The notes beneath the pieces were generated by a model. The model was given only the letters and a program-made list of their open reading frames with translations, was not told the DNA's origin and ran no database searches. The translations under genes were made by a program, and so were the position numbers. From a virus, in the IMG/VR virus record IMGVR_UViG_3300012984_000016, positions 10,306 through 74,305 of that record: 64,000 bases of DNA; one strand, 5' to 3'. Below are positions 5,087-59,177 of the stretch, in pieces. How positions within the stretch are numbered: position 1 is the stretch's first letter; the number at the start of each line of letters is the position of its first letter.

Positions 5087-6346
5087 CTATGGCCTAGTGC
5101 CGCCGTTAATGTTGATCGTGATCGACAGGCTCACGGTCGGCCCACCCTCGACGCTCGCGGGGAGGGTCACGGAGAACGGCTCCAGCGTCGCCTGGGCGGC
5201 TTCTCCCTGCTCGCCAGCCTCGGGGCTAGGCTCCACGGCGGCTTCGGCCTCCTCGTCCGTCTCCAGGTCGCTGAGTGCCTCGGAGGTCTCCTCCGGCGAC
5301 GGAGGCTCGGGCGTGAGGCGCGGGCCGTTGATGAACTCGACCTCGCCCACCACGTCGGACTCGCAGTACAGCGCGGGCTCGAGAACCGACCGGCGTTCGA
5401 AGTCGTACTTCCGCACGCCCACGGTCTTGTGCCCCTGCCAGATGCGCGTGTACTTGAAGAACTCGCACAGCGTGGACTGGATGTTGCACAGCGACAGGTC
5501 CAGCGGCTCCCCGTCATGGTCGAGAGGCCGGACGAAGGGCAGGTCGCGTGCTGCGAACTCCTCCCGTTGGTGCGCGTGCAGCCAGCGCATGACCATGAGC
5601 AGGTTCCGAGGCTTCACGTCGGGTGCGAGCATCGCCCACATACCGCTGCGTGCGCCGGGTCCTGCTTGGGCCCACTGGTTCTGACCGTACGGGAGCACGG
5701 GGTCCGGTCCGGTGAGCAAGTCCACCACGATCTGGTGGGCCAGGAACTCGCCGAGGCCGGGGATGTCCTTGAAGACCTTGAAGATGGTCTGCACGTCCGG
5801 AGACGCCTCGACCCTTCGGTGGTACTCGGGCATCATGTCCGCGATCTTCACGAACAGGCGACCGACGTTCTCGATCTTGTCCTCGCCGCCCTCGTCGTTG
5901 TACCCCGCCACACGGTAGGCGTCACCGAAGACCTTGAACACGTCGGAGTCCTGCTCGCGGAGGACCTTGATGAACACGTCCACGTCGTAGTCGTCCACGG
6001 TGGATGCGACCAGCCGGTGCGTGGGCGGCTGGGATCCCATGAGACGGTACATCACGACGTTGAACATCTTGTCCAGGTCGGAGTAGTCGGCGTTCTCCAC
6101 GATGGATGACACGACGTACTGCGTGCCGGGATCCAACTCGCGGTAGTTGTTGGTGATGAACTCGGCCTGCAGGATCGGGTCCTGAGTCCAGGGCCACTCG
6201 CGCTGCATGCACACACGCCGGAACCACACGGCTTGACGTTCGGCCACGAACCGCCAGTACAGATCGTACTGGGTGGGGTCGAAGCAGGTGATGTCGAAGT
6301 CCTTCTCGGCGACGTACCGCTTGACCGAGTCCGTGGCCTCTGTCAT
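5087..6346 (-). CDS. aGPT-Pplase1-like DNA base-hypermodification enzyme (HhH-glycosylase-related fold)
   Basis: YWRFVAERQAVWFRR...PWTQDPIL...FITNNYRELDPGTQY, IPGLGEFLAHQIVVDL, GPGARSG and IQSTLCEFFKY motifs. Confidence 0.8.
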   Translation of the reverse strand: MTEATDSVKRYVAEKDFDITCFDPTQYDLYWRFVAERQAVWFRRVCMQREWPWTQDPILQAEFITNNYRELDPGTQYVVSSIVENADYSDLDKMFNVVMYRLMGSQPPTHRLVASTVDDYDVDVFIKVLREQDSDVFKVFGDAYRVAGYNDEGGEDKIENVGRLFVKIADMMPEYHRRVEASPDVQTIFKVFKDIPGLGEFLAHQIVVDLLTGPDPVLPYGQNQWAQAGPGARSGMWAMLAPDVKPRNLLMVMRWLHAHQREEFAARDLPFVRPLDHDGEPLDLSLCNIQSTLCEFFKYTRIWQGHKTVGVRKYDFERRSVLEPALYCESDVVGEVEFINGPRLTPEPPSPEETSEALSDLETDEEAEAAVEPSPEAGEQGEAAQATLEPFSVTLPASVEGGPTVSLSITININGGTRP

Positions 6347-6726
6347 TTCTTGCCCTTCTTCTTCTTACGCCCCTTGCTAGCCTTGGGCGGCTTGGGCTTC
6401 GGAGGGGGCGGTGTCTTCGGAGACGGACCGTGGCCCGCCACTGCTCCCTTTGTGTAGTGCGGCTTCCACTTCTTGACAGAAGCCTCCACCTTGTGTTCCT
6501 TCTCAAGCGCGGACACCTTGCGCTCCTCGCGGGCGACATCGAAGTCCGGGTCCATAGTCTTGCGTGTCTTCTTCCAGGCCTCGTAAATCCTCCCCATACC
6601 GGTCTGGCGCTTCTCAGGAGACATGGCGTCGTCCTCGTCGAACACCGCGTCAGCCGTGGAGAAGAACTCCAGCAGGGGACCGGTGGCCGCGATGAGATCG
6701 TCGACCCTGCGGTCAGCCTTGGGCAT
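6343..6726 (-). CDS. Hypothetical protein with Pro/Lys-rich tail
   Basis: Stop coupled to downstream start; phage-like codon usage. Confidence 0.6.
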   Translation of the reverse strand: MPKADRRVDDLIAATGPLLEFFSTADAVFDEDDAMSPEKRQTGMGRIYEAWKKTRKTMDPDFDVAREERKVSALEKEHKVEASVKKWKPHYTKGAVAGHGPSPKTPPPPKPKPPKASKGRKKKKGKK

Positions 6727-7120
6727 CGAGAGTTCCCTTGAACCGCTCCGCTGCCTGAGCCACGCCCTTGAGCGAAGCCACCATCGCCTGCGATGCCTCA
6801 TGCTTGGCAATGTCCTTCCGTGCTGCCTTGCGGATCCGACGCTCCTGCGCCGGAGTCAGCGGACGCCCACCGTTCTGCTCGATGTAGTGAGCGATGCGAT
6901 CCTCAGCGGACAGCGGAGCCGGGGCTGTGCCGCCCGAGCCGTTGATGATGGAACGGAGGTAGCGGTCGTGCGCCTCCTGTCCCTCGAACTCCTTGCGGTC
7001 GAAGCCGACCGGAGTACGGGGCGGGGGTGCGGGCCGGTTCACGGTGGGTCGGGAGTTGCGTGCGTACTCCTCCATGAGCGGCTTGACCTCGTCAGGCGCG
7101 GGCTCGCGGACCTCTGTCAT
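6713..7120 (-). CDS. Hypothetical protein
   Basis: ATGA overlap with upstream gene; GGAGG SD. Confidence 0.6.
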   Translation of the reverse strand: MTEVREPAPDEVKPLMEEYARNSRPTVNRPAPPPRTPVGFDRKEFEGQEAHDRYLRSIINGSGGTAPAPLSAEDRIAHYIEQNGGRPLTPAQERRIRKAARKDIAKHEASQAMVASLKGVAQAAERFKGTLDAQG

Positions 7121-8004
7121 GCTGCCTCCTCGAATGCCTTCATGGCCTCGGCCCACACCTCGTCGATCGAGGTGAAGCCCTTGTACGCCTTGCGCTGCAA
7201 CTTCTCATCGGACAACTTCTGGACGTGGCACACCTTGTAGAACTGGCAAGTGTCCGCCATGCTCGAACCCAACTTGCAGTCGGGGTGCATGGGAGGCATG
7301 CGCCGCTTCTTCAGATGCGCGTGCTGTTCCTTGAGCCAGGCGACCGCTGACTTCCAGTGGCCGGTGTCGAAGCCCACCGCGAAGCACTTGGTACGCTGCG
7401 TGTCCTTGCAGTCGTACAGCAGGATGCCGTCCTCGATCCCCTTGGCCTTCATGTAAGCCAAGAGTTGGCGGACCGCGTCGTCCTTCGGTTCGTCCTCGCG
7501 GTTGATCCAGTCGAAGCCGCGACGGTTGATGCCCTTGATGTCGATGACGTACAACTTGCCGTGGATGAGCAAGGTCACGTCGAGGTTGCCAGCGACATGC
7601 CACTCGTCGAGGTGGACGAAGTACTCGATGTCGATGACCTTGAACTTCTCGGGGTCTCCGAACACCGCCTCCATGTCACGGAACAGTGCCTGCCACTTGT
7701 GGTGTCTCCAGTTGCCGTCGTCGAACAGCAACTCCTTGTCGGGGTTGACCTTGCGCGAGCCCTTGTACCCCAGGAACTTGAGGATCGCCTGGCGGTCGCA
7801 TCGGCCGATGGACGACGGGGAGAAGCGACCACCCGGACGGGCCCGCGCCACCATGGAGATCTCATGCGAGCGCACCCGGCCCTTGGCCTTCGGGGTGTCG
7901 CGGATGATCATGTACTCATCGATCAGTGGGCGCAGCGGATCGAGTTCCTTGCTGTGTAGACGCTTGACCATGTCAGCCAGCATCTTGCTGTCGCCTGGGG
8001 TCAC
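7117..8004 (-). CDS. Cas4-like PD-(D/E)xK exonuclease
   Basis: SPSSIGRC, GNLD, IDIK, QLLAY and C-terminal C...C..C Fe-S pattern. Confidence 0.85.
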   Translation of the reverse strand: MTPGDSKMLADMVKRLHSKELDPLRPLIDEYMIIRDTPKAKGRVRSHEISMVARARPGGRFSPSSIGRCDRQAILKFLGYKGSRKVNPDKELLFDDGNWRHHKWQALFRDMEAVFGDPEKFKVIDIEYFVHLDEWHVAGNLDVTLLIHGKLYVIDIKGINRRGFDWINREDEPKDDAVRQLLAYMKAKGIEDGILLYDCKDTQRTKCFAVGFDTGHWKSAVAWLKEQHAHLKKRRMPPMHPDCKLGSSMADTCQFYKVCHVQKLSDEKLQRKAYKGFTSIDEVWAEAMKAFEEAA

Positions 8005-8498
8005 TCAGGATCACCCTTGTAGTCGCGGAGGTTGATGGGGTGGTTCGCTGCGAGGTAATCCTTGAAGTTGATGAAGCCGTCCTCGGTCCAGTAGCCCCAG
8101 GACTTGGTGCGCTTGCCGACGAACACCAGGGTCCAGGTGTCGGGCTTGATGGAGATGATCCGGTGCGCGTCCTGCTTGCTCATCTTGTGGAACGACAGCC
8201 AGCCGTGAGTCTTCTTCACAGCAGGTCGGAGCGCACCCTCACGGCGCTCGGTGTGCAGGACCTCGTCGTACCCGCCGCGCACCACCAGGGACCAGAAGTT
8301 GAAGGGGTGGTCGTGCGGGTCCGGGTCATGGTCGGGCTGGTGGATGTGGTGAAGGAACAGCGCGAACCAAGGGGTCTGGATGAGACGGTGGCGACGGAGG
8401 TACAGCACGTCCATCTCGTTCTCATCCCAGCACATGATGTCCTGGACCTTCATGAAGGACCAGCGACCACCGGAGGTCGGGTTGAACTTCTTCGTCAT
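8001..8498 (-). CDS. Cupin-fold (cysteine-dioxygenase-like) metalloprotein
   Basis: LHHIHQPD.DPDPHDHP, GGYDE, HRI, TWTLV motifs. Confidence 0.6.
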   Translation of the reverse strand: MTKKFNPTSGGRWSFMKVQDIMCWDENEMDVLYLRRHRLIQTPWFALFLHHIHQPDHDPDPHDHPFNFWSLVVRGGYDEVLHTERREGALRPAVKKTHGWLSFHKMSKQDAHRIISIKPDTWTLVFVGKRTKSWGYWTEDGFINFKDYLAANHPINLRDYKGDPE

Positions 8499-8812
8499 GG
8501 CGTGTACCTCTCGATCACAACCGTCAGGCCGGTGCCCGCGAACTCAATGATCATACGAGGTTCGCGACCGTGCGTCAGCGCGTCCTTCTCGATGGCCAGG
8601 AACTCCTCGGCGCTGATCCGCCAGGACGCCTTCATCGTGGTCTTGAGTTGGTCCAGGTACTCGGGGCCCTTCACGTCCTGTGGGGCCCGCCTGCTGCTCC
8701 CGGACCCCGGCTGGACCCCGCCGCCTACCTCGCGTGCGTGGCGCTGCTCCTGGGCCTTGCTGCGGGCGTTGTTGTCCTTGCCGGGACGATCCCACCACCC
8801 GGGCTTGCTCAT
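8495..8812 (-). CDS. Hjc-type Holliday junction resolvase / PD-(D/E)xK nuclease
   Basis: QEQRHARE.GG..QPGSGS....DV......QLKTT motif. Confidence 0.65.
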   Translation of the reverse strand: MSKPGWWDRPGKDNNARSKAQEQRHAREVGGGVQPGSGSSRRAPQDVKGPEYLDQLKTTMKASWRISAEEFLAIEKDALTHGREPRMIIEFAGTGLTVVIERYTP

Positions 8813-8991
8813 GGTCCCTGCACGCTGATCGTGCCGGAGGGGTTCGTCTGGACCCCGTCGACGACGATGGTTCCCTTGACCAGTCGCCACGGCTTGCGTC
8901 CGCCATGCTTACACGGGCACGACGGAGGCGACTCGCAGTAGTGCTTGCGGTCACCCCGGTCCGCAGCGTCAGCACACTTCTGGCAGATCAC
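8809..8991 (-). CDS. Small Cys-rich hypothetical protein
   Basis: CxxC...HxC...CxCxH; coupled on both sides. Confidence 0.55.
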   Translation of the reverse strand: MICQKCADAADRGDRKHYCESPPSCPCKHGGRKPWRLVKGTIVVDGVQTNPSGTISVQGP

Positions 8992-9389
8992 GCCGTGCCG
9001 CCTGCCGTGTGGTCGTTGACCGCCTGACTCAGGTGGTCAGTCACTGACTTGGTCAGCGAGTCCAGCATCTCCTGCGGGTCCACGCGCGGCTCCGTGGCGT
9101 GGATCGGGCCGACCAGCACACCCAGCGGACCCTGCACCAGCGGCACACCCAGGATGGCAGGGTGCGTGAGTTGGGAGAACGAGAACCCTGGGCGGTCCAT
9201 GAAGTGGTTGTCATCCACGATCTTGATCTTGAGCACGTCCATGACATCCTCTGGCACCGACAGCGCCTGGATGGTCCCGATCATGCCCTCACGGATGCGC
9301 TGCATGATCACGGCGAGTTGACCGATCGCCTGGGCTGCCACCTCCGAGGGGGAGTCCTCGTCACGGTACGGTCGCACGCGGTCAGTCAT
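8988..9389 (-). CDS. Hypothetical protein
   Basis: Operon packing. Confidence 0.6.
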   Translation of the reverse strand: MTDRVRPYRDEDSPSEVAAQAIGQLAVIMQRIREGMIGTIQALSVPEDVMDVLKIKIVDDNHFMDRPGFSFSQLTHPAILGVPLVQGPLGVLVGPIHATEPRVDPQEMLDSLTKSVTDHLSQAVNDHTAGGTA

Positions 9390-10473
9390 CGTCCTCGTCC
9401 TTGTCCTCGATGATGGTGTCCGGCTCGGCGGTGTTGAAGATGTCAGTCCGCAACTCGTCCGACACCGCTACGTTGCGGAGGAGCCACTTGTGGAACTTGT
9501 TGCGGGACGACTGCTTCTCTTCTTCGTAGCCGACGACCCACCACTTGCTACCGGACTTCTTGATCAGGCCGGTGCGTCGGCCGAGGTACATCAGGTCCTC
9601 GGTGGCGTCGATGCCACCGTTGATGTAGTCGTACACGAACGTACCCTCGGCCCCGGCGATGGCCGCGCCGGTCTTGTCCTTCTCCACTCGCATGAGCACG
9701 CGGTGCCCCACGGTGGATGCCTTCTTGATCACGTCCCCGGTGTTCGGGTTGATCAACTTGCGCTGGGCCTTGATGTTCTCGGTGCGGTTCAGTTCGAGCC
9801 GGGTGCCTGCGTAGAAGGCCATGGACCGACCACCTGAGGTGGTGGTCTGCTTGGCGAAGGCGGACGCTCCGACGGCCTGTCGCGTCTGGTTGATGAAGAT
9901 GATCGCGGAGTCGGTGTTGGCCACCGTCAACTTCCGCAGCGCCTTGCTCATCAACTTCGCCTGCTCCATTCCCATGGAGCGGTCACCCATCGACGAGTCC
10001 ACCTCGGAGCGAGGGGACAGGGCTGCGATGGAGTCGATGCCGATCACGTCGTACAGGCCGGAGCGGATCTGGACCTCGGCCATGTCGATGACCTGCTCAG
10101 CATCCTCCTGCTGGATGAGCCGGAGCCGACGCAGGTCGATGCCCGCCTTCTCAGCGAAGCGAGGGTCGAACGTTCCCTCGACATCTGCGAAGCAAGCCCC
10201 GAGCCCGAGCCGCTGGGCGTTGCCCAGGGCGCGGAACGTGAGGTAGGTCTTGCCCACGTTGTAGGAGCCGTACAGTTCGAGGTAGCGGTTGCGCGCGAGC
10301 CCGCCGTCCAGCAGGTAGTCCACTGAGTCGATGCCCGTGGGGATGCGCTGGATCTTGAGGGACGGGTCCGAGCCCAACTTGATTGCACCCGGGAACTTCT
10401 TGTTGACCTCGTCCATGTGCGCGTCGCGCTTCTGGTCCATGGTCAACTCGGCTGTTGCTGAACGACGGGGCAC
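9382..10473 (-). CDS. recA: RecA-like recombinase
   Basis: IPTG..SVD.LL.GG, Walker A GSYNVGKT, IDSIAAL, QAKLMSKALRKL, IFINQ, TTSGG. Confidence 0.95.
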   Translation of the reverse strand: MPRRSATAELTMDQKRDAHMDEVNKKFPGAIKLGSDPSLKIQRIPTGIDSVDYLLDGGLARNRYLELYGSYNVGKTYLTFRALGNAQRLGLGACFADVEGTFDPRFAEKAGIDLRRLRLIQQEDAEQVIDMAEVQIRSGLYDVIGIDSIAALSPRSEVDSSMGDRSMGMEQAKLMSKALRKLTVANTDSAIIFINQTRQAVGASAFAKQTTTSGGRSMAFYAGTRLELNRTENIKAQRKLINPNTGDVIKKASTVGHRVLMRVEKDKTGAAIAGAEGTFVYDYINGGIDATEDLMYLGRRTGLIKKSGSKWWVVGYEEEKQSSRNKFHKWLLRNVAVSDELRTDIFNTAEPDTIIEDKDEDDD

Positions 10474-10476
10474 GGC

Positions 10477-13400
10477 TCAGTCCTCCCTGGGTACGTGCTT
10501 GATGACCTTGATGCTGGACGCCTTCCCACACGAGAGGTTGAGCCAGCGCGGCTCCCACTCACCGCGACACTGGACAAGTGATCCTACGCCTGCCGACCAG
10601 TGCTTGCTGGTCTCCGACCACAGCCGGATGTCGAAGTCCTCGACCGGTGACCACCGGATGTTCCAGGTCAGGTATTTCTTACCGGTCTTGGTCTCGCCCT
10701 CGCGGATCTTGGTGATCACTCCGACCAGGCACACGTCCTCGCCCGTGAGCGACTCCTCGGGCAGGACCACCTCACTCTGGTACTTCTCCCGGTACTTCTT
10801 CATGCGGTCCTTGAACTGCCACTTGAGCAACTCCTCGGTGCGGTGCGGGTCACCAGGCACACCGATGGACTCGAACACTGAGGCTTCAGTCAGGGTCTTC
10901 ATGTAGCCCACGTTGTTGACTTCCAGGGACACGTCCTCGACCGACTGGAACCCCTTCTTCGGGCGGTTGTTCATGAGCCGCTCGCCGACCTTGATGCCGA
11001 TGCCAGCGATGTCGGTGAAGCCGAAGCGGATGATCTTCTTCTTGGCATGAGCCGTGGCCAGCGCGTCCGAGGTGTTGATGTCCGGCGGTGCGATCTTGCC
11101 ACCGAACTCCATGGCCTCGCGCATGTAGATGTCGCGGCGCTCCGCGTTGTCCTTGTTGTTCGGCACGGTGCGCAGCAGGGCGGTGATGTACTCGATGGGG
11201 TACATGCACTTGAGCCGAGCGGTCTGGTAGGTGAGCAGGGTGTAGGCCGCTGCGTGCGAGCGGTTGTAGCCGTACCCGGCGTACCCCTCGATCATCTTCC
11301 AAATCTCCTCGGCGGTCTCCTTCGGGATGCCCGAGGTCTTCTTGCAGCCCTTGATGAACGCGGGGCGCATGGCCTGCATGTCGTCCGACGACTTGTCCTT
11401 GATCGCTTCCTTGATGTCATCCATGCCCGCGTCGTCGAAGCCCGCCAGGGTGCGTCCGAACTCCATGACCTGCTCCTGGTAGAGCACGACGCCCCACGTG
11501 TCCTCCAGGATCGGCTTGAGGGCCGGGTGTGCGTACTGGATGCCCGCCTTGCCCAGCCGTCGGTTCTTGTTGAAGATGTCGGGGAAGCCCGCGCTCATGG
11601 CACCCGTGCGGTAGAGGCTCGTGATCGAGATGAGGTCCTCGAAGTTCTTCGGCTTCACGTCGCGGCACCCGCGTCGGTTGGCCGGTCCCTCCATCTGGAA
11701 CACGCCCGCTGTCTTGCCCTTCGCCAGCATGGCGTAGACCTTGTCATCGCCAGGCTCGTTGTCGGGATCCCAGAAGTCCGGCTCGATGTCCAGCCCGCGA
11801 CGTTCCTTGAGAATCTTCAGGCACTCGTCGATGGTGTCCAGGGTGCGGAGGCCGAGGATGTCTTCCTTGAGGAAGCCCATCGCGTCGACGGCCTTCTTGT
11901 CGTACTGACCGATCATCCGCTTGGACGAAGGGATCCAGGCCTCGGGGATCTGCTTGCGGATGTTGGCCGAAGGGTCGGCGATGATGATGCCCGCAGGGTG
12001 AGCAGCGATCTGCTTCTTCAGCCCGCGCAGTTGCATCAGCATGGCGATGACCTCGGGGTAGTCCGCCATGAGTTGCTCAGGGATGAAGGCCTCGCCGGTC
12101 TCCTTGTCTTCGTAGATGCCCTTGTTCAGGTTGATGGCCTCCTGGCGCGGGATGCCGTTGGCGATGGCCACCGCGTTGAATGCTGACTTTGCACGGAGGT
12201 GACCGAAGGCTGCCACCGACATGGTGTTCTCAACACCGTACTTGTCGATGACGTAGTCGAAGACTTCACCGCGACGGAGTTGCGAGAAGTCCGAGTCGAT
12301 GTCGGGCATCTTCGGGCGGGCCGGGTTGAGGAACCGCTCGAACAGCAGGGTGTACTTGATCGGGTCGCAGCGGTGGATGTCCAGCAGGTATCCCACAAGG
12401 GTGCCAGCCGCCGACCCTCGACCGGGGCCGACCCGGATGCCCACGGACCGTGCGTAGGTGATGATGTCCGCAGTGATCAGCATGAAGTGCGCGATCTTCG
12501 CCTGCTTGTACACCTTGAGTTCTGACTTGAGCCGGGAGGTGTACCGCTCGTCACCGTCCAACCCGAGTTCCTTGAGCCGCGTCTTGCACATGCGCTTCAT
12601 CTCGGCGTCGGCATCTTCCACGCCGGGGAACTTGGGGATCTGGAACGTCTTGGACTCCCACGCCGGGATGCGTGTGTAGGAGTCCTTGGCGATCTGCAGG
12701 TTGGTGGCCACGCCGTTCTTCCAGTGCTTGGCACCGTAGGGCGACATGGTCTGCTTCATCTCGTCGTACGACTTCAGCCAGTAGCCCTCGCCCTCGAACC
12801 GGAACCGGTTGGGGTCCGTCACGTCCGAGGCGGTCTGGATCGCCAGCAGGGTGTCGTGCGCCATGGCGTCGTGCTCGTCCGCGAAGTGCGGGTCGTTCGT
12901 GATGACGTGCTGCAGGTTGTACTTCTTGGCCATGGCGATCAGCGCCGTGTTCAACCGGAGGTCGAAGGGCGTGTCGTGGTGCATGGTCTCGATGTAGTAG
13001 TGGGGGAAGGTCTCGCGCCACCACAGCAACTCGGTGACCGCCCGCTCCTCTGCGTCGTCCTCGTCGCTCAGGAGGGCCTTGGAGAGCGCAGAACCCGCGC
13101 ACCCAGACAGGACGGTCAGATGCTTCGCGTCGTCTCCCAGGGCCTCCAGGATGCCTCGGTCGACCAGCGGCTTGAAGTAGAAGTTGCGGTGGCTCTCGGA
13201 GGACAGTTCCGACAGCACCTCGTACCCTCGTGCCCCACGGGCCAGGATGCTGATGTGCCGCTGGTCCTTCTGGCCCTGCGCCTTGTCCGCCCGGTGGCTC
13301 GCCACGTCCGGGACGAAGTAGAACTCCTCGCCGATGATCGGCTCCACGCCTTCCTTGCGGCACGCCTTGTAGAACTCAGGTGCGCCGGGGAGCCAGCCGT

Positions 13401-13527
13401 GGTCGGTCAGTGCCAGTGCAGAGAACCCCAGAGACCCTGCTTTCGCAGCGTACCCGGCGACTGTAGCCGCACCATCCAGCATGCTGTTGTCGCTGTGGTT
13501 ATGCAAGTGGATGAAGTCGCTAGGCAC
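10477..13527 (-). CDS. dnaE: DNA polymerase III alpha subunit
   Basis: PHP motifs HLHNHS/TDHG/TNDPH, GPGRGSAAG, PDIDSDF, KEDILGL, YQEQVM, YNRSHA, C-terminal OB fold. Confidence 0.97.
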   Translation of the reverse strand: MPSDFIHLHNHSDNSMLDGAATVAGYAAKAGSLGFSALALTDHGWLPGAPEFYKACRKEGVEPIIGEEFYFVPDVASHRADKAQGQKDQRHISILARGARGYEVLSELSSESHRNFYFKPLVDRGILEALGDDAKHLTVLSGCAGSALSKALLSDEDDAEERAVTELLWWRETFPHYYIETMHHDTPFDLRLNTALIAMAKKYNLQHVITNDPHFADEHDAMAHDTLLAIQTASDVTDPNRFRFEGEGYWLKSYDEMKQTMSPYGAKHWKNGVATNLQIAKDSYTRIPAWESKTFQIPKFPGVEDADAEMKRMCKTRLKELGLDGDERYTSRLKSELKVYKQAKIAHFMLITADIITYARSVGIRVGPGRGSAAGTLVGYLLDIHRCDPIKYTLLFERFLNPARPKMPDIDSDFSQLRRGEVFDYVIDKYGVENTMSVAAFGHLRAKSAFNAVAIANGIPRQEAINLNKGIYEDKETGEAFIPEQLMADYPEVIAMLMQLRGLKKQIAAHPAGIIIADPSANIRKQIPEAWIPSSKRMIGQYDKKAVDAMGFLKEDILGLRTLDTIDECLKILKERRGLDIEPDFWDPDNEPGDDKVYAMLAKGKTAGVFQMEGPANRRGCRDVKPKNFEDLISITSLYRTGAMSAGFPDIFNKNRRLGKAGIQYAHPALKPILEDTWGVVLYQEQVMEFGRTLAGFDDAGMDDIKEAIKDKSSDDMQAMRPAFIKGCKKTSGIPKETAEEIWKMIEGYAGYGYNRSHAAAYTLLTYQTARLKCMYPIEYITALLRTVPNNKDNAERRDIYMREAMEFGGKIAPPDINTSDALATAHAKKKIIRFGFTDIAGIGIKVGERLMNNRPKKGFQSVEDVSLEVNNVGYMKTLTEASVFESIGVPGDPHRTEELLKWQFKDRMKKYREKYQSEVVLPEESLTGEDVCLVGVITKIREGETKTGKKYLTWNIRWSPVEDFDIRLWSETSKHWSAGVGSLVQCRGEWEPRWLNLSCGKASSIKVIKHVPRED

Positions 13528-13558
13528 GATTCCTCAATCCTCTCTGGGGTTCTCTGGC

Positions 13559-14749
13559 TTACTCGGACGGGACGTGCGATGCGAACATCCAGTCCAGGAC
13601 TTCGGTGGGAACCTTCTCACCCGTGATCGGGTGCGGGCCACGGAGATGGTCGACCACGTCCTCGTGCCCCTTCTTGTGCCAGCGGTGGTAGTAGTAGAAC
13701 CGGGCCTGAGCGAGGCCGAGCACCGGGTCCATGCAGCCGAGGAGGGTGTGCGCCGCCTTGAGGTCGAACCCCTTCTTGTACAGGGTGTGGGCCGCGAACG
13801 CCTCCAGCAGGCCGATCCAGGACACCGGCACTTCCTGGTGCGCGTTGAACAGCAGGGACTCGACCTGATCCCACTCGCACGTGCGGAGTGCCATCTCGTA
13901 CGAGCGGACCGACGCGAGCACCTCGTCCGTGAGGTCGGCGGTCTCCCACGTCCAGTGACCACCGAAGCCCCAGCCGTCCTGCACCGCCTGGTACAGGTCG
14001 AACTCGGCGATGTCCTCGGCCTCCGCGTGGTGGTACTCGTAGGCGTGCAGGGAGTCGGCGACGTGCGTGTACGTGCCGACGGGGATGCCCAGGCGACCGG
14101 CGATGTACCGCTGCATGGACATCCACTGGATGAAGTTGTAGGGCGTGCCCCACATGACATCGTTGGACCGCAGGATCTGCAGCCAGTCCAGGCGACCGTC
14201 CCGGATCATCAGGTGCGCCATGAGGTTACAGGCGCGGTCCTTGGTCTCGCGGCGGACCTCCTCGAAGGCGTAGTTGTCAGTGTCCGAGGGGACGCGCATC
14301 GGCTGGTACGCCCGGTCGTGCGACGGCAGCGTGATGGTGAGCACGGCCTGGCGGGTCTCGGGGTCCTCGGTAAGCAGGCGGACCACGTCCTCGATCTGGT
14401 CGTGACCGTGGGCGTAGCGCAGGCGGTAGCCGTACGCCGCGTTGAAGGTCTCACCGTCGTCGGAGTAGTCACCGATCTTGGAGTTGTAGTGCTTGAGCAT
14501 CTCCACGTCGTTCTGCCCACCCAGGATCCACAGGACCTCGGCGAAGGCGAAGGTGACGTTGACCGGTCGGCCGAAGGCGGTGACCACCGGGCGCAGCGGG
14601 TCGTCGATGATGATCGTGGCGGGGTGGATCTCAAGGGTGGGTGCCACCCGAGAGGGGACCTGCTTGCCGCCGCCCATGACCGCCGCTACCGCAGCGGGGT
14701 ACACGACGTTGGCGTTCGGCCCCTTGATGATCGCTTCGTTGGTGGTCAC
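13559..14749 (-). CDS. Thymidylate synthase homologue, probable dUMP hydroxymethylase
   Basis: FAEVLWIL.G, AYGYRL, TRQAV, catalytic ACN, RSNDVMWGTPYN, SLHAY; long C-terminal extension. Confidence 0.8.
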   Translation of the reverse strand: MTTNEAIIKGPNANVVYPAAVAAVMGGGKQVPSRVAPTLEIHPATIIIDDPLRPVVTAFGRPVNVTFAFAEVLWILGGQNDVEMLKHYNSKIGDYSDDGETFNAAYGYRLRYAHGHDQIEDVVRLLTEDPETRQAVLTITLPSHDRAYQPMRVPSDTDNYAFEEVRRETKDRACNLMAHLMIRDGRLDWLQILRSNDVMWGTPYNFIQWMSMQRYIAGRLGIPVGTYTHVADSLHAYEYHHAEAEDIAEFDLYQAVQDGWGFGGHWTWETADLTDEVLASVRSYEMALRTCEWDQVESLLFNAHQEVPVSWIGLLEAFAAHTLYKKGFDLKAAHTLLGCMDPVLGLAQARFYYYHRWHKKGHEDVVDHLRGPHPITGEKVPTEVLDWMFASHVPSE

Positions 14750-15393
14750 TTGGAACCCTCCGGGTAGGTGAAGCCGCGCCGCGTGAGGTGCTCAGCGATG
14801 AACGCGGTGGTCTCGCCCCGGGGAAGGTGCGGGACCAGGATGGTGATGTCCTCGTGGCGCTGGGCCAGGTACTCGTAGTTCTCCAGCACCTGCTTGTTGT
14901 TGCTCTTGTCCTTGGCGAACGGCTCCAGGAACATGAACACGATGTCGGGCATGCACCCTTGCGTGGGCAGCCGAGCGAGGTCGATGAACTCGTCCGCTGT
15001 CATCTGGGTTCGCATGTCCTTGACCCACCCGTAGGCGAAGGTCGAGAACCAGTTGCGATCCAGGAACACCGACTCGGCGTCGGAGTGGAGCCGGGGTACG
15101 ATGACGTTCTCGTACATCTCACAGTGTGCCGCAAGGTGCAGGAACTGCCGGGTGAGCGGGAGGTGCTTCTTCCAGTTCACGTCCTCGGTGAGGCCGTAGA
15201 TCTTGGCACCGAGTTCCGAGCCGCCGCTGGGCGAGTGCGTGAACACCGGCTTGCCGGAGTACAGGGGCTCGCCCTGCTCGGGCGCGTACACGGCCCGCTC
15301 GAAGCGGTCCATCTGGGTTGACTTGCCTGTGGCGTCCAGCCCCTCGAACACGATGAAGGAGGAGGGCTTGAGGATCAGCGGCAACTTGAACAC
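14746..15393 (-). CDS. tmk: Thymidylate/dNMP kinase
   Basis: FEGLDATGKSTQ P-loop, LDR, PD motif. Confidence 0.85.
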   Translation of the reverse strand: MFKLPLILKPSSFIVFEGLDATGKSTQMDRFERAVYAPEQGEPLYSGKPVFTHSPSGGSELGAKIYGLTEDVNWKKHLPLTRQFLHLAAHCEMYENVIVPRLHSDAESVFLDRNWFSTFAYGWVKDMRTQMTADEFIDLARLPTQGCMPDIVFMFLEPFAKDKSNNKQVLENYEYLAQRHEDITILVPHLPRGETTAFIAEHLTRRGFTYPEGSK

Positions 15394-17985: not shown

Positions 17986-18277
17986 GACCGAACTGCCCGT
18001 CTCTGTAGTTGGTGCGTGGACCACGAGTGGACCAGCCACCCTTGGGGATCTTGACTCCAGCGCGCTCGCACTCGCCAGGTCCGGGTACGGTGCAGAACGC
18101 ATCGTGGTGGTGGTGCCGCCAGGTCGGGCACTCTTCGGTGCCGGTGCCGTGGTGGCTTCCTGAGTGGCCCCACTGGTCGCGCCCTGCCTTGAGAGCAGCC
18201 TGACGGCACGCGCGGTACTCGTCGATCCTGCCAGCGTTGACAGCCTCGTCGAAGGTCAGCGACTCGATGGGAGTCAT
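17978..18277 (-). CDS. His/Cys-rich hypothetical protein
   Basis: ATGA coupling; GGAG SD. Confidence 0.55.
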   Translation of the reverse strand: MTPIESLTFDEAVNAGRIDEYRACRQAALKAGRDQWGHSGSHHGTGTEECPTWRHHHHDAFCTVPGPGECERAGVKIPKGGWSTRGPRTNYRDGQFGRA

Positions 18278-18738
18278 CGCCACTCCAGGTCGGTGAGTTC
18301 TGCACGGCGGGCCATGAGCAAGGTGCCGAGCCAGTTCAGGCCCTCCCAGCGCATCTTGGTGTTGTTCCAGGTCATGCCCCAGAACTTGTCGCCCCAGGTG
18401 TTGCCTTCGATCAGCCCGTAGTCCAAGGTGTTCAGGACCAACTTGGTGCTGAGGTCGTGAGGCTTCTCCGACATGCCAGGGAACTTGTGGTCCAGCGCAG
18501 TGCGCATCACTTCGAGCCGGTAGTAGTTCCAGTCCCCGCGCATGGTGCACCGGGCCCCGAGACGCTTCGCTTCCTTGGGGGTAGCCGCCTTCCGAATCTC
18601 CTTGGCCTGCTGCTTCTTCTTCGCCTTCATCGACTGGAAGTAGTGCTCGACCGTGGGGTAGTGCAGCCCGTCGATCTTCATCGGGCTCGGGTGGAAGTTG
18701 CTGAGGAAGGCGTACTCCCCGGTGAAGCGCGTGATCAT
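18274..18738 (-). CDS. NADAR (YbiA-like) family protein
   Basis: FLSNF, TVEHYFQ.MK, AKRLG, LIEGNTWGD.FWG, G.NWLG.LLM. Confidence 0.9.
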   Translation of the reverse strand: MITRFTGEYAFLSNFHPSPMKIDGLHYPTVEHYFQSMKAKKKQQAKEIRKAATPKEAKRLGARCTMRGDWNYYRLEVMRTALDHKFPGMSEKPHDLSTKLVLNTLDYGLIEGNTWGDKFWGMTWNNTKMRWEGLNWLGTLLMARRAELTDLEWR

Positions 18739-23567: not shown

Positions 23568-23804
23568 ATGACCACTGGAAGATCGTTGAAGCAGTGGATC
23601 GCCGAGGAGAAGGGTCCGTACCAGGACCACATGACCTCCGGGGAACTCTGCATCTACCTCAACATCAACCCGCGCACCCTGCGTGAGTGGAAGAAGAAGC
23701 CGTGGTTCCCACCACCCGAGGTCATCACAGCCAAGGGTTGGGGACTGTGGTCACCCGATCAACAAACGGCTCTGCTGCGCAGGCGGCTCGGAGAGGACAG
23801 GTAG
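23568..23804 (+). CDS. MerR/excisionase-like HTH DNA-binding protein
   Basis: TSGELCIYLNINPRTLREW...FPPP. Confidence 0.65.
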   Translation: MTTGRSLKQWIAEEKGPYQDHMTSGELCIYLNINPRTLREWKKKPWFPPPEVITAKGWGLWSPDQQTALLRRRLGEDR

Positions 23805-24526
23805 TGGCGAAGAAGAAGTACGAAGCCAAGGACATCAGGAAGCCCCTGATCTTCAAGGTCCGCAAGGGCACCTCGGACGAGAAGTCCATCGCCGAGGTCG
23901 TGACCCGCAGGGGTTACGGTCGCTACAACTTCACGCCGCGCCCCGGTGAGCAGTGGATCGACCTCGGTGCGAACATCGGCGCGTTCGCAGTGTGGGCAGC
24001 CGCTCACGGTGCCAACGTCGCTGCGTACGAGCCCGAGCCCGGGTGCTACGAGCGCCTGGTGATCAACGCCGGTCTCAACGGCAAGACGATCCAGGACCGC
24101 ATCACTCCGATCCAGTCCGGCGTTGCTGCTGACGCTCGCAAGAAGAAGATGCACATGTCCGTGAACTCCGCTCGCGGCAACGTGTGGCGGTCGTCCATGT
24201 TCAAGGACTGGCAGGGCGGCGAGTCCATCGACGTTCCGGTCACCACCGTCGAGGGTCTCTGGACCCCTGACAACTGCATCAAGATGGACATCGAGGGCAT
24301 GGAGATGCCGATCCTCGAACGGTTCGCTGACAAGCCCGTCAAGCGGCTGGTGTTCGAGTGGTCGTTCGACATCGACCCGTCGCTCGACCGCTTCCGCCAG
24401 GTCATCAAGACCCTGCAGGAGACCTACCCCAACGTCAAGGGCGGCAACGTCCCGGACGACGCGCCTGAGGACAAGTGGCAGCCCCAGTGGTTCCCGCCGT
24501 GCCGACTGGTGTACTGCTGGTCATGA
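23804..24526 (+). CDS. FkbM-family SAM-dependent methyltransferase
   Basis: IDLGANIGAF, AYEPEP, IKMDIEG.E. Confidence 0.85.
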   Translation: MAKKKYEAKDIRKPLIFKVRKGTSDEKSIAEVVTRRGYGRYNFTPRPGEQWIDLGANIGAFAVWAAAHGANVAAYEPEPGCYERLVINAGLNGKTIQDRITPIQSGVAADARKKKMHMSVNSARGNVWRSSMFKDWQGGESIDVPVTTVEGLWTPDNCIKMDIEGMEMPILERFADKPVKRLVFEWSFDIDPSLDRFRQVIKTLQETYPNVKGGNVPDDAPEDKWQPQWFPPCRLVYCWS

Positions 24527-53599: not shown

Positions 53600-55318
53600 T
53601 TATCTCTTGCGCTTGGACCCAAGAGTCCGAATGACTGCAACTCGGGCTCCGGCGATGGCTGCGACGCCCGCAACTTTACCGGCTCCCAGTTGAGTCGGGG
53701 AAGTAGACACAGCCCTGGGTGCCACTCGCACATTGTTGAGACCGAGGCGCTCGACGAACTGCGAGAAGTAGCAGATGCCCGCGTCCATGAGGTGGTCGTT
53801 GCCCTTCTGGATGCGCTGGCCCTGGTCCCGCTTCCAGGTCTTCCGCTGCTCGTGGAAGGTGGTGAACTCCTTCGGCATGATCAGCGAGTTGGCCTCGTTG
53901 TAGATGTTCCAGGCCGCGACCGCGCTCTCCTTCTCGGTTCCGAAGTTCACATCCCGCACGGGCAGCCGGTGCTCGTCCCGCAACTTCGGGTTCAGGTAGT
54001 TGCCGCCGCCACCGATGTCTGCAGCGATCTCCTTGAAGTCCGCCGCGTAGTTGACTCGGAGGCCGAGGAGGATACCGACGATCTGGGACAGGCCCGCCTC
54101 CTCCACCTGCTCGGCGTGGATGAGCGCGTGGCGGTCTCCAGGCTGCTCCTGCCACACCTCGACGCCACAGGCGACGGTGCCCCAGTCAACGCAAATGGTG
54201 ACGGGCCAGCCGGGGATGTACACTTCGGTGCCGGTCTTGTCGACCGTGTTCTGCTCCCACTTGAACGGGTCGCGGATGACGAAGCCCTTGGACGAGGGCC
54301 GCGAGCCCATCGCCTCGACTTCCCAGTTCGCGTGGTTGCGCTTGCCACGCTTCCACAACTTGATGATCTCAGACATGGGGATCCAGCCGTCGGCGTACAT
54401 CGCTCGACCGCCGCAGTAGGCCTTGTGCAGAAGGCGCTCGGTGGGTTCGCCCGTGTCAGGGTCCATGTAGGTCTCGTAGTGGTCCTCACGGAAGCACGAC
54501 TCCTCGGACTGGCAGCCGTCCCCGGTGCAGTCGCACTTCTTGGCCACGTCGAAGATGTCCCACTTGTACAGTTTGTAGCCCATCTCGACCGCGTTGTCCA
54601 TGACCTCCGCGAACGAGCCCTCTGCGTTGTGGAAGGTGGACGCACGAACGTTGACCGAGGGCTGAGCGGTGTTGATGGTGGGCAGGGCCGCTGCGACGAT
54701 CTCAGGCGCGGCCTCTGCCTCCTCGTCGATGACCAGGAGACCACCAGCGATGCGCCCGCCCTTCTTGACTCCTCCGGCGTGCGGGGAGCGGACGGACTTC
54801 TGGGACGCGGTCAGAACTCGAATCCAGGCCCCGACCTTGGTGGTGGTCTTCGAAGCGAGCGCGTCGCCGTCCACCATGTCTTGCCACTGCTTGTCCGAGT
54901 CGATGTAGCCGACGATGTACTGATACACCTGGTCGGCCTGGAGTTCGGATCCACCGAGGTTCAGCGCGTCGTAGTCCTTCAGGAACACCAGGAAGAACTC
55001 GATGAACGACACGCCCTGGCTCTTGCCTCCACCACGGTTGGCCACGGCGGCTGCTGACTCGATGTGGCCGAGACACACATCCTCGATCAGGTCGCGCAGG
55101 CCAGGAGTGATGGGGCCGTGAACCTCGGGGTCGTACTTGCCAAGTTCCTGCATGACCTGCAGGGGCTTCTTGGGGAACTTGAGCCCGAACTTGGCAGCGA
55201 GGCCTACGGGGTCAGTCTTGTACCGCTCGCGCAGCGAGGCGGCTTGGTTACGTACCGCTCCGAGCAGAGCGTCGACTCCGACGATTTCGCTCTGTCGTGT
55301 CTGCCGGTCCAACGGCAC
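53600..55318 (-). CDS. terL: Terminase large subunit
   Basis: Walker A ANRGGGKS, Walker B LVIDE, ASTF, nuclease VDWG and DHLMDA; GTG with GGAGG SD. Confidence 0.9.
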   Translation of the reverse strand: MPLDRQTRQSEIVGVDALLGAVRNQAASLRERYKTDPVGLAAKFGLKFPKKPLQVMQELGKYDPEVHGPITPGLRDLIEDVCLGHIESAAAVANRGGGKSQGVSFIEFFLVFLKDYDALNLGGSELQADQVYQYIVGYIDSDKQWQDMVDGDALASKTTTKVGAWIRVLTASQKSVRSPHAGGVKKGGRIAGGLLVIDEEAEAAPEIVAAALPTINTAQPSVNVRASTFHNAEGSFAEVMDNAVEMGYKLYKWDIFDVAKKCDCTGDGCQSEESCFREDHYETYMDPDTGEPTERLLHKAYCGGRAMYADGWIPMSEIIKLWKRGKRNHANWEVEAMGSRPSSKGFVIRDPFKWEQNTVDKTGTEVYIPGWPVTICVDWGTVACGVEVWQEQPGDRHALIHAEQVEEAGLSQIVGILLGLRVNYAADFKEIAADIGGGGNYLNPKLRDEHRLPVRDVNFGTEKESAVAAWNIYNEANSLIMPKEFTTFHEQRKTWKRDQGQRIQKGNDHLMDAGICYFSQFVERLGLNNVRVAPRAVSTSPTQLGAGKVAGVAAIAGARVAVIRTLGSKRKR

Positions 55319-55619
55319 TGTGACCTCCAGGGGTTCCGGAGGCCATTCTGTCCTTGTTGCGGTTCTCAGGCAGCAACCGCGAGTTGGGAGACACGATCGA
55401 GTGCTTCTGCTGCGAGGGCTTGCCCCACAGTTCACGAGGGACCTTGACGGCGTTCGGGCCGGTGACCTGAGCGATGTAGTGACCCTTGGTGGGGAACCCG
55501 CACCAGGCGTGGACCCACAGCGTCGTCACGGGGTCTCGGGAGTAGCCCGCCGAGTTAGCCCCGCCCTTGCCGTCGCTCAGGCAGGTGCAGAACCTCTGCA
55601 CTATCGTTGTCTCGCTCAC
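55248..55619 (-). CDS. Hypothetical protein
   Basis: ORF in packed block. Confidence 0.5.
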   Translation of the reverse strand: MSETTIVQRFCTCLSDGKGGANSAGYSRDPVTTLWVHAWCGFPTKGHYIAQVTGPNAVKVPRELWGKPSQQKHSIVSPNSRLLPENRNKDRMASGTPGGHSAVGPADTTERNRRSRRSARSGT

Positions 55620-58419: not shown

Positions 58420-58863
58420 TTACTGGTATTCCGCCAGAACGTTGACGGCTCGGGCCATGGCCTTGCGGCGCTTCTTGCCGGAGGCGCTGTAGGTCTCGAC
58501 CATGCCCCGCAGGGCCTCGGTGAGGTCCTCGATCTGCATCGTCTTGAGTGTGGAGCCGTGCGGGACGGTGGCCCGGTCCTTGACGTGCTTCGGCAGCACG
58601 TACACGTGACAGCGCCCGCGCTTGAGCGCGAGCCGCTCGATCACGCCTTCCTTGTGCAGTTCGGACAGGGCGGACGAAGCCGACTGATGTGACTTCTCCT
58701 CCATGTCCATGTACTCAGCCATGGTCATGCCGTGCACACCCTGGTCGACCAGCAGCAGCAGGGCCACCGACTTGTTGTCGATGTGCTCACCGGAGGCCTC
58801 CAGCCGCTCGGCGCGCTCGACGGACGCGGGGACCTTGACGTGGGGAACCTTGGGGCCGGTCAT
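58420..58863 (-). CDS. Winged-HTH DNA-binding protein
   Basis: GMT..E....HQSASSALSELHKEG.I. Confidence 0.65.
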   Translation of the reverse strand: MTGPKVPHVKVPASVERAERLEASGEHIDNKSVALLLLVDQGVHGMTMAEYMDMEEKSHQSASSALSELHKEGVIERLALKRGRCHVYVLPKHVKDRATVPHGSTLKTMQIEDLTEALRGMVETYSASGKKRRKAMARAVNVLAEYQ

Positions 58864-59177
58864 GACTGGGTCCTCTCGCTCGCGGGTCGGCGGTTGTTGT
58901 AGGCCATGCGGTCCCAGACCACGTCCAGCGGCTCGACGCCTTCCAGGTGGCACAACTTGAGCCAGGCGATGCCCACGTCCCCGAGTTCGTCCCTCAGGAG
59001 GGCTGTGCGGTCCTTGCCGTCCTGGCGCTGCTCGTCCCGCTTGAGAGCCTCGCCGAGGGCTTCCCCGGCCTCCTCAGCGAGTTTGGCAGCACACCGGAAG
59101 GGGTCGCGGGAGTGGCCGAAGCGATCCGACCATGCCATGATATCTTTGGTCAGTGTGAAAATACCTCTGTTGGTCAT
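58860..59177 (-). CDS. MazG-like nucleotide pyrophosphohydrolase
   Basis: KLAEEAGE...DELGDV. Confidence 0.8.
   Translation of the reverse strand: MTNRGIFTLTKDIMAWSDRFGHSRDPFRCAAKLAEEAGEALGEALKRDEQRQDGKDRTALLRDELGDVGIAWLKLCHLEGVEPLDVVWDRMAYNNRRPASERTQS

Follow-up and report, generated by a model that had tools for sequence, protein, structure and literature searches.

A putative 5-hydroxymethyldeoxyuridine locus in an uncultured phage contig combines a hydroxymethylase-type thymidylate synthase homologue, a coupled kinase and a clade-1 aGPT-Pplase-family protein

The characterised route to hypermodified thymidine in phage DNA leads from a deoxyuridine monophosphate (dUMP) hydroxymethylase through a 5-hydroxymethyldeoxyuridine (5-hmdU) DNA kinase (5-HMUDK, PF18748) and a PF18724 transferase to tailoring enzymes (PMC5889632, PMC8989533, PMC13458397). 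The amino-acid/amine:DNA transferases demonstrated in this route, M6 gp51, ViI gp247, PaMx11 gp46 and PhiW-14 gp109, all belong to clade 2 (PF18724, ADDT) of the alpha-glutamyl/putrescinyl thymine pyrophosphorylases (aGPT-Pplases) (PMC8989533, PMC11472151), and the Pplase2 proteins of SH-Ab 15599 and YuA are also of clade 2 (PMC13458397). The subject of this work is a 64,000-bp stretch of viral DNA (the window, bases 10306-74305 of a 74,305-bp IMG/VR viral contig), which encodes a clade-1 protein (PF18723), a thymidylate synthase (TS) homologue and a thymidylate kinase (TMK)-like protein. To our knowledge, every characterised thymidine hypermodification begins with a PF18748 DNA kinase and a PF18724 transferase, and neither was found here.

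The reading preferred for this locus, with a probability of roughly 55%, is that 5-hydroxymethyl-dUTP (5-hmdUTP) is synthesised at the nucleotide level and incorporated by the phage DnaE, and that the PF18723 protein then carries out a Cys-dependent step on the DNA. It draws on observed family memberships, diagnostic residues, gene coupling, the absence of the canonical partners and co-occurrence across genomes. The proteins concerned are the following.

5087..6346, minus strand: PF18723 protein, 419 aa (PF18723 E 4.4e-54, 184.2 bits, cut-off 25)
10477..13527, minus strand: DnaE-type DNA polymerase III alpha, with PHP, DNA_pol3_alpha, finger and HHH_6 domains
13559..14749, minus strand: TS-family enzyme, predicted dUMP 5-hydroxymethylase, 396 aa, with a core (~1-250) and a C-terminal extension of ~145 aa
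14746..15393, minus strand: TMK-like P-loop kinase (PF02223), predicted 5-hmdUMP (deoxynucleoside monophosphate, dNMP) kinase, 215 aa
58860..59177, minus strand: candidate MazG-like all-alpha nucleoside triphosphate (NTP) pyrophosphohydrolase, 105 aa, with an EExxE...ExxD pattern

In this scheme, the phage would replace deoxythymidine triphosphate (dTTP), fully or in part, by 5-hmdUTP. The TS homologue would convert dUMP to 5-hmdUMP, the translationally coupled TMK-like kinase would phosphorylate 5-hmdUMP, the host nucleoside diphosphate kinase would finish the triphosphate, and the phage DnaE would polymerise it, while the small MazG-like protein may rid the pool of dTTP or dUTP. Once the DNA is replicated, the helix-hairpin-helix (HhH)-glycosylase-like domain of the PF18723 protein would flip 5-hmdU out of the duplex, and Cys294 and Glu295 would then do chemistry at C5/C6 of the base, in a step that uses neither a PF18748 DNA kinase nor a PF18724 transferase. 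We infer each of these enzymatic activities, the DNA-level substrate of PF18723 and whatever can be said of the identity of the final base; since the DNA kinase and the transferase are both lacking, that base is not predictable.

The TS homologue matched PF00303 (Thymidylat_synt; E 1.6e-20, 73.8 bits, cut-off 24.3) and carries LRSNDVMWGTPYN, the exact sequence given in an earlier note on this DNA. Its best PHROG, phrog_5131 (6.4e-67), covered only the core (profile positions 2-234 of 357) and is also the home family of SP10 gp188 (1.5e-128) and M6 gp58 (1.9e-172), from phages in which the thymidine derivatives of the DNA come from 5-hmdU (PMC5889632, PMC8989533). Among PDB sequences the best relative was the CMP 5-hydroxymethylase MilA (5.4e-25), 15 orders of magnitude ahead of the best true TS (4.8e-10). 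MilA, which acts in mildiomycin biosynthesis (PDB 5b6d and 5jp9), is thus the closest solved sequence relative (E 5e-25, residues 48-274) and is likewise a hydroxymethylase, not a methylase; it differs in its ribonucleotide substrate and in having the Asp that goes with cytosine specificity, whereas the window enzyme has the uracil-type Asn. The NCBIfam TS equivalog cut-offs were all missed (64.1 vs 174.55 bits for TIGR03283, 59.5 vs 327 and 35.6 vs 108.35), and SP10 gp188 likewise scored far under them.

The window protein was aligned with E. coli ThyA, T4 gp42, SP10 gp188, M6 gp58 and Chepli gp50. The catalytic Cys (E. coli C146), Glu58, Tyr94 and R166-S-x-D169 are kept, with ACN, AEVLW, AYGYR and RSND aligning with ThyA. 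E. coli W80 aligns to a gap and is missing from SP10 gp188 and M6 gp58 as well; H147 of ThyA is Asn in the window protein, SP10 and M6 (PCN/ACN replaces PCH); and the TS C-terminal tail is replaced by the long helical extension (~145 aa), the same pattern as in SP10 gp188 and M6 gp58. In TS, Trp80 shields the methylene intermediate from solvent and the short C-terminal tail closes the active site. Given the shared PHROG, the proximity of MilA, the scores below the TS equivalogs and the absence of W80, H147 and the tail, the protein is best read as a hydroxymethylase of the SP10/M6 type rather than a TS. RSND, described earlier as typical of phage nucleotide hydroxymethylases, is indeed common to every hydroxymethylase in the alignment and is consistent with the class, not diagnostic of it. 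At the pyrimidine-specificity position (E. coli 177) the window protein has Asn (GTPYN), and T4 gp42, MilA and Chepli gp50 have Asp. According to Hardy and Nalivaika (1992), as cited in PMC8670742, Asn at this position specifies uracil. Uracil specificity is therefore indicated, as the claim that Asn selects dUMP over dCMP would have it, and the proposal that this phage makes 5-hmdU DNA with its own DnaE stands as the best reading.

The hydroxymethylase GTG start and the kinase TGA stop overlap as a GTGA tetranucleotide, and the kinase matched PF02223 (Thymidylate_kin; E 1.9e-9, 37.9 bits, cut-off 27), which bears out the description of a dNMP kinase coupled to the TS homologue. Its score on the dTMP-kinase equivalog TIGR00041 was 51.2 bits, under the cut-off of 83.25. 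In an exhaustive search the kinase had 686 relatives, of which 77 scored E<=1e-10. The motifs Q-x-L-H-x-[AS]-x-H and D-R-x-W-W-S (DRxWWS..AYG) occur in the window kinase and in 124 of its 150 best relatives, and canonical TMKs in the same match list have L-F-x-A-A-R and DRY...AYQ at the same positions; Q83, H86, H90, D112, R113 and S117 are invariant in a 28-sequence kinase alignment. Phe and Arg in helix 3 of TMK (L-F-x-A-x-R) contact thymine, and the DR motif binds phosphate. In the window kinase both of these helix-3 residues are His, and the DR motif and the TMK architecture are kept. The thymine-contacting helix thus appears remodelled with the phosphate-binding motif retained, and the sequence places the kinase in a separate TMK-like subfamily. 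Fusions of such kinases to MazG+MazG_C occur in two metagenomic clusters (P0119 and P0127), and the nearest fused relatives of the window kinase are of this kind (36% identity, E 3e-21). In a FastTree phylogeny, a single clade (support 0.96) held the window kinase, the MazG-fused kinases and a kinase from another contig, G051. Because of the GTGA coupling to the hydroxymethylase and this affinity to MazG, the protein is probably a nucleotide-level 5-hmdUMP kinase.

The same gene pair might instead serve ordinary thymidylate supply, making dTMP and dTDP for fast replication in a high-GC host whose phage keeps canonical T, with PF18723 as an unrelated glycosylase-like repair or anti-defence protein. 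Pairs of TS and TMK are common phage auxiliary genes, both proteins scored above the Pfam cut-offs for TS and thymidylate kinase, and the equivalents of the catalytic Cys, Glu58, Tyr94, Asp169 and Asn177 are all present. That explanation is considered very unlikely, given how far the TS homologue falls under the TS equivalogs, its grouping with the SP10/M6 enzymes and MilA, its missing W80, H147 and TS tail, and a kinase that is under the dTMP-kinase equivalog and lacks the thymine-contacting Arg and Phe.

The aGPT-Pplase1 signature reported previously at 5087-6346 corresponds to the PF18723 match, in which residues 27-302 align with profile positions 4-274 of 281. The family is currently named HMUDK_hel ('5-hmdU DNA kinase, helical domain') in Pfam and was formerly aGPT-Pplase1. 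GenBank labels of phage homologues include both 'aGPT-Pplase1 / alpha-glutamyl/putrescinyl thymine pyrophosphorylase clade 1' and '5-hmdU DNA kinase helical domain-containing protein', and, as both names are used on PF18723 homologues, they denote one family. The protein consists of a helical HhH-glycosylase-like domain (~20-320), followed by an acidic disordered linker and a short conserved tail (320-419). R69, D72, A143, F201, D209, G231, G235, C294, E295 and K298 are invariant over 28 homologues, as are the hairpin glycines G197/G199 in the family of this protein. The family-invariant motifs (WT.DP, N.YR.LD, a G-x-G hairpin plus Asp, GPGA and C-E-x-x-K-Y) are all present in the window protein and are conserved in M6 gp55, SP10 gp186C, Microbacterium phage Chepli gp53 and the kinase-fused forms. 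The closest homologues (P0004-P0036) are 40-52% identical, and no longer fused forms (>=735 aa) of the window protein were found. Since the Cys-Glu pair is invariant, PF18723 is probably an enzyme, not merely a DNA-binding accessory.

In clade 1 the conserved Cys lies in the motif [EQ]-x-x-[LF]-C-E, represented in the window protein by Q290, C294 and E295. Clade-2 M6 gp51 has a resembling helix, E-T-V-L-C-K-W-K, and PaMx11 gp46 appears to share with the window protein a conserved Cys on a C-terminal helix within [EQ]-x-x-[LF]-C; the residue right after this Cys is Glu in clade 1 and Lys in clade 2. The Cys of the clade-2 helix is essential by mutagenesis (PMC8989533) and corresponds to Cys247 in gp46 (PMC11472151). 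An AlphaFold2 model of the window protein was all-helical, with a mean predicted local distance difference test score (pLDDT) of 76 and most of the core above 85. Its best PDB match was PaMx11 gp46 (8z2n; Z 10.7, root-mean-square deviation 4.3 over 225 residues, VIA-align), followed by a queuine-salvage hydrolase (DUF2419, Z 9.7) and the HhH glycosylases MjOgg, NTHL1 and MutY (Z 8-9); Foldseek against 8z2m gave a probability of 0.97 at an E of 0.057. PaMx11 gp46 (PUGT; 8z2m, 8z2n), a clade-2 glycinyltransferase of 5-phosphomethyl-dU (5-PmdU), and the PF18723 model both have a two-lobed helical HhH-type fold. The two proteins are 8-13% identical with no Pfam cross-hit, and a PDB sequence search with the PF18723 profile returned nothing; the conclusion drawn from the model goes no further than a shared fold class, with clade 2 as the nearest relative. 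Unlike gp46, the window protein is not expected to use a phosphorylated substrate.

The C-terminal 100 residues (window 5087-5390) begin with a low-complexity linker that is acidic and Pro/Glu-rich, with pLDDT below 50. A tail motif (…V-x-φ-x-I-T-I-N-φ…) is kept in the closest subfamily and absent from the M6, SP10 and Chepli homologues; this conserved tail might be a docking peptide.

The canonical partners were sought across the 74,305-bp contig. PF18724 gave no match at E<=1 in the contig and none in the PF18723 protein at E<=0.01, and PF18748 was absent at E<=10 across the contig. As positive controls, M6 gp51 scored 1.4e-46 on PF18724, and M6 gp54 and SP10 gp186N scored 7.7e-18 and 2.8e-23 on PF18748. 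Neither clade 3 (PF18746) nor a dCMP deaminase (PF00383) was found in the contig, and the ThyX and MazG Pfam models matched nothing in it. A Walker-A scan of all coding-like open reading frames (ORFs) returned only RecA, DnaB, a terminase-like ORF, an incidental motif in DnaE and the TMK-like kinase. The earlier note had seen no 5-hmU DNA kinase or dCMP deaminase in the window and had proposed searching the rest of the genome for a P-loop 5-hmU DNA kinase; the absence holds for the whole contig, and that search found no P-loop kinase beyond the TMK-like one. Its further statements, that aGPT-Pplase enzymes attach amines or amino acids to phosphorylated 5-hmU and that this phage hypermodifies its 5-hmdU DNA, are not supported in that form for this locus, as the attachment has been shown for clade 2 only and the contig has clade 1 only, and as hypermodification with both PF18724 and PF18748 absent has no characterised precedent.

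The phages with the most similar gene content show where the differences lie. M6, PaMx11, ViI, PhiW-14, SP10 and SH-Ab 15599 share with the window the placement of these genes in the replication module, beside the DNA polymerase; in the window, the DnaE gene is directly downstream of the hydroxymethylase gene. The window also resembles SP10 and M6 in having a hydroxymethylase of the same PHROG and a clade-1 paralogue, as represented by M6 gp55 (PF18723 8e-56) and SP10 gp186C. Unlike these hypermodifying phages, it has neither PF18748 nor PF18724, no pyridoxal phosphate (PLP), radical S-adenosylmethionine (SAM), flavin adenine dinucleotide (FAD) or acetyltransferase tailoring genes next to the core, a TMK-like kinase coupled to the hydroxymethylase, and a DnaE in place of their family A or B polymerases. 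SP10 gp186 is composed of an N-terminal PF18748 kinase half and a C-terminal clade-1 half, and is listed as a validated 5-hmdU DNA kinase (PMC8989533 Table 1). Its PF18723 domain is 28% identical to the window protein over 231 residues (E 1e-18) and has the CE..KY motif, but a kinase domain is fused to it, and the window protein is without one. The only P-loop kinase of the contig is PF02223-like, of another family than SP10 gp186N, with which it has no detectable similarity; similarity to M6 gp54 is limited to the P-loop. The proposal also resembles the SPO1/SP8-type hmdU phages and T4 gp42-gp1, in which a hydroxymethylase and a dedicated dNMP kinase act at the level of the nucleotide pool before polymerisation. 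The window kinase differs in being a TMK derivative with a Q/H/H signature, unrelated to T4 gp1, and the PF18723 enzyme is additional.

A census was made of 50 IMG/VR genomes of at least 36 kb that encode a PF18723 homologue, 30 of which were rated at least 90% complete. A TS-family gene was present in all 30, PF18748 in 2 and PF18724 in 3, and 27 of the 30 had neither of these; PF02223 and the kinase subfamily of the window were found in 0/30, and FkbM in 3/30. As a rough baseline, a single-query tblastn search with the window TS homologue gave matches in 1003 of 50,697 phage records. TS motifs were read in 40 homologues, most being of the window type (PCN, [FY]SDDG, RSND…N) and ~9 being T4-like with Asn-Asp at the specificity site, as in Chepli gp50. 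Because the TS family is present in 30/30 genomes and mostly of the window or T4-like type, PF18723 is tied to pyrimidine hydroxymethylases in general, usually without the canonical kinase and transferase; ordinary thymidylate supply would leave this co-occurrence unexplained. The layout with clade 1 only is the commonest among the census genomes, and, as clade 1 is usually accompanied by a hydroxymethylase alone, the current pathway model fails to explain the commonest configuration.

A pairing of PF18723 with a T4 gp42-like protein was seen in L003 (Chepli gp50), L125, L127-L129, L131, L133, L134, L138 and L144, about a quarter of the PF18723 genomes. Given these cytosine-type (Asp) partners, PF18723 may also serve 5-hydroxymethylcytosine DNA. 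Chepli encodes PF18723, the TS homologue, a member of a 'thymidylate kinase' PHROG and MazG together. Within 5.5 kb, contig G051 (62% GC) carries a subfamily kinase (40% identical to that of the window) together with PF18723 (7.5e-118) and a divergent TS-like ORF; outside these genes it shows no relation to the window. This TS-fold ORF (L145:9408-10418, plus strand, 336 aa) scored only 1.7e-4 on PF00303, has the motifs FPCL and YRSQS, and is convergent to the strong PF18723 gene and 3 kb from the Q/H/H kinase; it may be a further pyrimidine-modifying TS relative.

The current Pfam name of PF18723 reflects a different assignment, in which the TMK-like kinase and PF18723 would be the two components of a split 5-hmdU DNA kinase that makes 5-phosphomethyl-dU, to be resolved by an enzyme or a small nucleophile. 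PF18723 is fused to P-loop kinases in two independent ways, to PF18748 in SP10 gp186 and to TMK-like PF02223 domains in at least five metagenomic clusters (P0072, P0206, P0169, P0201 and P0209). The latter TMK-like domains have the Q/H/H and DRxWWS signature of the window kinase, at 30% identity (E 3e-13). In the FastTree phylogeny, however, the window kinase is in the MazG-linked clade and every PF18723-fused kinase is in the other, sister clade; the kinase gene is coupled to the hydroxymethylase gene, with the PF18723 gene 8.4 kb away; and the invariant Cys-Glu would be needless in an accessory domain. M6 gp54 phosphorylates hmdU DNA without gp55 (PMC8989533). The absence of subfamily kinases from all 30 other near-complete PF18723 genomes indicates that PF18723 has no general need of one. 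A predicted complex of the PF18723 protein and the kinase scored 0.00, which is uninformative either way. A split kinase is accordingly judged unlikely, and the fusions keep a DNA-level role of the kinase alive only at low probability.

Several observations weigh against the preferred reading of nucleotide-level 5-hmdUTP synthesis followed by a PF18723 step on DNA. We know of no clade-1 protein for which an activity has been demonstrated. An hhalign comparison of clade 1 with a single clade-2 sequence, M6 gp51, aligned only the 18-column HhH hairpin, and the fold match of the model to gp46 (Z 10.7) is little above those to generic HhH glycosylases (Z 8-9). The three core genes do not form one operon, as the PF18723 gene lies 7.2 kb downstream of the hydroxymethylase gene on the same strand, and the searches turned up neither a dCMP deaminase nor a dUTPase-type supply enzyme. 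The MazG call depends on look-alikes and a motif: the MazG proposed earlier at 58860-59177 has the EExxE...ExxD pattern and resembles MazG clusters in the ESM Atlas (feature score 0.93 over 201 features, TM 0.79), and it has no Pfam, PHROG or NCBIfam match, so that its clearing of dTTP or dUTP is a possible lead only. CheckV rates the contig 92% complete, without terminal repeats, and a kinase or transferase gene could lie in the missing part. In M6, the clade-1 protein gp55 was dispensable in vitro, glycinyl-thymidine being formed without it (PMC8989533).

Site usage in the whole contig, including the 10.3 kb before the window, bears on the same question. AGCT was observed 0 times against ~214 expected from a second-order Markov model (246 by composition), CCGCGG 0 times against 43 and GGCGCC 0 times against 24; CTAG was under-represented (30 vs 57 expected), and GATC, TCGA and GTAC were not avoided. 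As the avoidance of AGCT is total, it points to long-standing selection by an endonuclease cutting a T-containing site, and implies that restriction at that site mattered to the lineage. Full protective modification of T might have made such avoidance unnecessary, which is a further argument against the preferred reading and suggests the unprotected T-containing sites expected with ordinary thymidylate supply. The loss of AGCT is easier to reconcile with modification that is partial, context-dependent or non-protective than with full protective replacement.

Synthesis of hmdU would be reconciled with total AGCT avoidance if hmdU were transient, with PF18723 converting it via a C6-thiol adduct and an exocyclic methylene to thymine or a T/hmdU mix, so that mature DNA is largely canonical. 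According to the reports listed as refs 19-22 of PMC8989533, mature SP10 and PhiW-14 DNA acquires its thymine at the polymer level, from 5-hmdU derivatives. Clade-2 enzymes give thymidine if a hydride donor is present (PMC8989533), and all four classic hypermodifying phages, in which T is partly unmodified, carry clade 1 beside clade 2 (PMC5889632 Table 3). However, PF18723 showed neither a reductant-binding domain nor a cofactor motif, and the contig has no DNA kinase to activate the hydroxyl; this purely inferential conversion is regarded as highly improbable.

A bolder version of the Cys-dependent step, considered less likely than not, is that PF18723 acts alone and without a kinase on 5-hydroxymethylpyrimidines in DNA, with Cys294 adding to C6, Glu295 protonating the hydroxyl so that it departs unphosphorylated, and a cellular nucleophile capturing the exocyclic methylene. 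In that case this phage and the majority of PF18723 phages, those with a hydroxymethylase as sole partner (27/30 genomes lack both PF18748 and PF18724), would carry an undescribed DNA base, and the dedicated 5-hmdUMP kinases that have long been sought would be the TMK-like Q/H/H group; the subfamily defined by Q/H/H and DRxWWS is in any case a concrete candidate for an hmdUMP kinase or an alternative hmdU DNA kinase. A function for PF18723 would assign chemistry to hundreds of phage genomes. The protein could turn out to create a new base, to synthesise thymine at the polymer level or to present substrate to a kinase, and it might provide a new tool enzyme with which to label 5-hmU or 5-hmC. 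The claim for this phage is a modest one, as it adds one more uncultured member, with a predicted chemistry, to a recurrent kinase-less class; the value lies less in this phage than in the clade-1-only configuration, the commonest one, for which there is no known chemistry.

Two further features near or proposed for the system are as follows.

6343..6810, minus strand: 155-aa ORF, possible accessory, its stop overlapping the PF18723 start by 4 nt
23804-24526, with the start possibly at 23687: FkbM methyltransferase (PF05050 1.7e-11, TIGR01444 1.5e-16)

The 155-aa ORF had no Pfam or PHROG match. A search of IMG/VR for related loci with the PF18723 protein alone gave nothing, and a search with a PF18723 alignment gave a single close relative for which neighbouring genes could be seen, L085 (8.6 kb); it has the Cas4-like, small ORF, PF18723, WhiB and RuvC genes in synteny with the window and stops short of the TS region. 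A homologue of the 155-aa ORF immediately precedes the PF18723 gene in L085 (48% identity across 52 aa).

Several candidates for tailoring were rejected. The family assignment of FkbM was confirmed, whereas its suggested tailoring role was not retained, as FkbM occurs in only 3 of the 30 near-complete PF18723 genomes and adjoins a transferase in G008 only. The 'cupin' at 8001-8498 had no Pfam match and matched only phrog_4786 ('cysteine dioxygenase', 1e-30); it is a tailoring enzyme by PHROG name alone, and nothing ties it to the system. Outside the window, the left arm of the contig (290-2512, plus strand, and 6999-9270, minus strand) encodes an Amidoligase_2 and class-II glutamine amidotransferase pair and an ANL adenylating enzyme, the latter in a chain of overlapping ORFs. 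Genes of these types have been seen near hypermodification genes in viromes (PMC8989533). Amidoligase_2 was found in 0/50 PF18723 genomes, and the left-arm genes lie ~13 kb or more from the core genes. No glycosyltransferase was found among ~60 contig proteins scanned against Pfam, and a 264-aa ORF upstream of the kinase, gp32-like at best, was left out of the system.

The G+C content of the window is ~63-64%, and its minus strand encodes WhiB, a sigma-70-like factor, DnaB, a DnaG-type primase, RecA, DnaE and a Cas4-like exonuclease between 4 and 20 kb. DnaE is ~34% identical to DnaE of Streptomyces phages. Based on WhiB, the G+C content and the affinities of DnaE, an actinobacterial host is plausible. 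The stretch is contained in three 2018 soil metagenomes, as assembled contigs only, and megablast of the 10.3-kb region against the 50,697 phage records gave zero matches. A 611-aa ORF with a Walker A motif (window 53600-55435, minus strand) has the position of the large terminase; as tblastn with it against the same records found no match at E<=1e-5, the virion module appears very distant from cultured phages. Between the primase and DnaB helicase genes, overlapping the end of the latter, lies a gene for a NADAR-domain protein (window 18274-18738, minus strand; PF08719 2.1e-26). NADAR proteins undo the ADP-ribosylation of DNA bases, so a role in counter-defence is possible.

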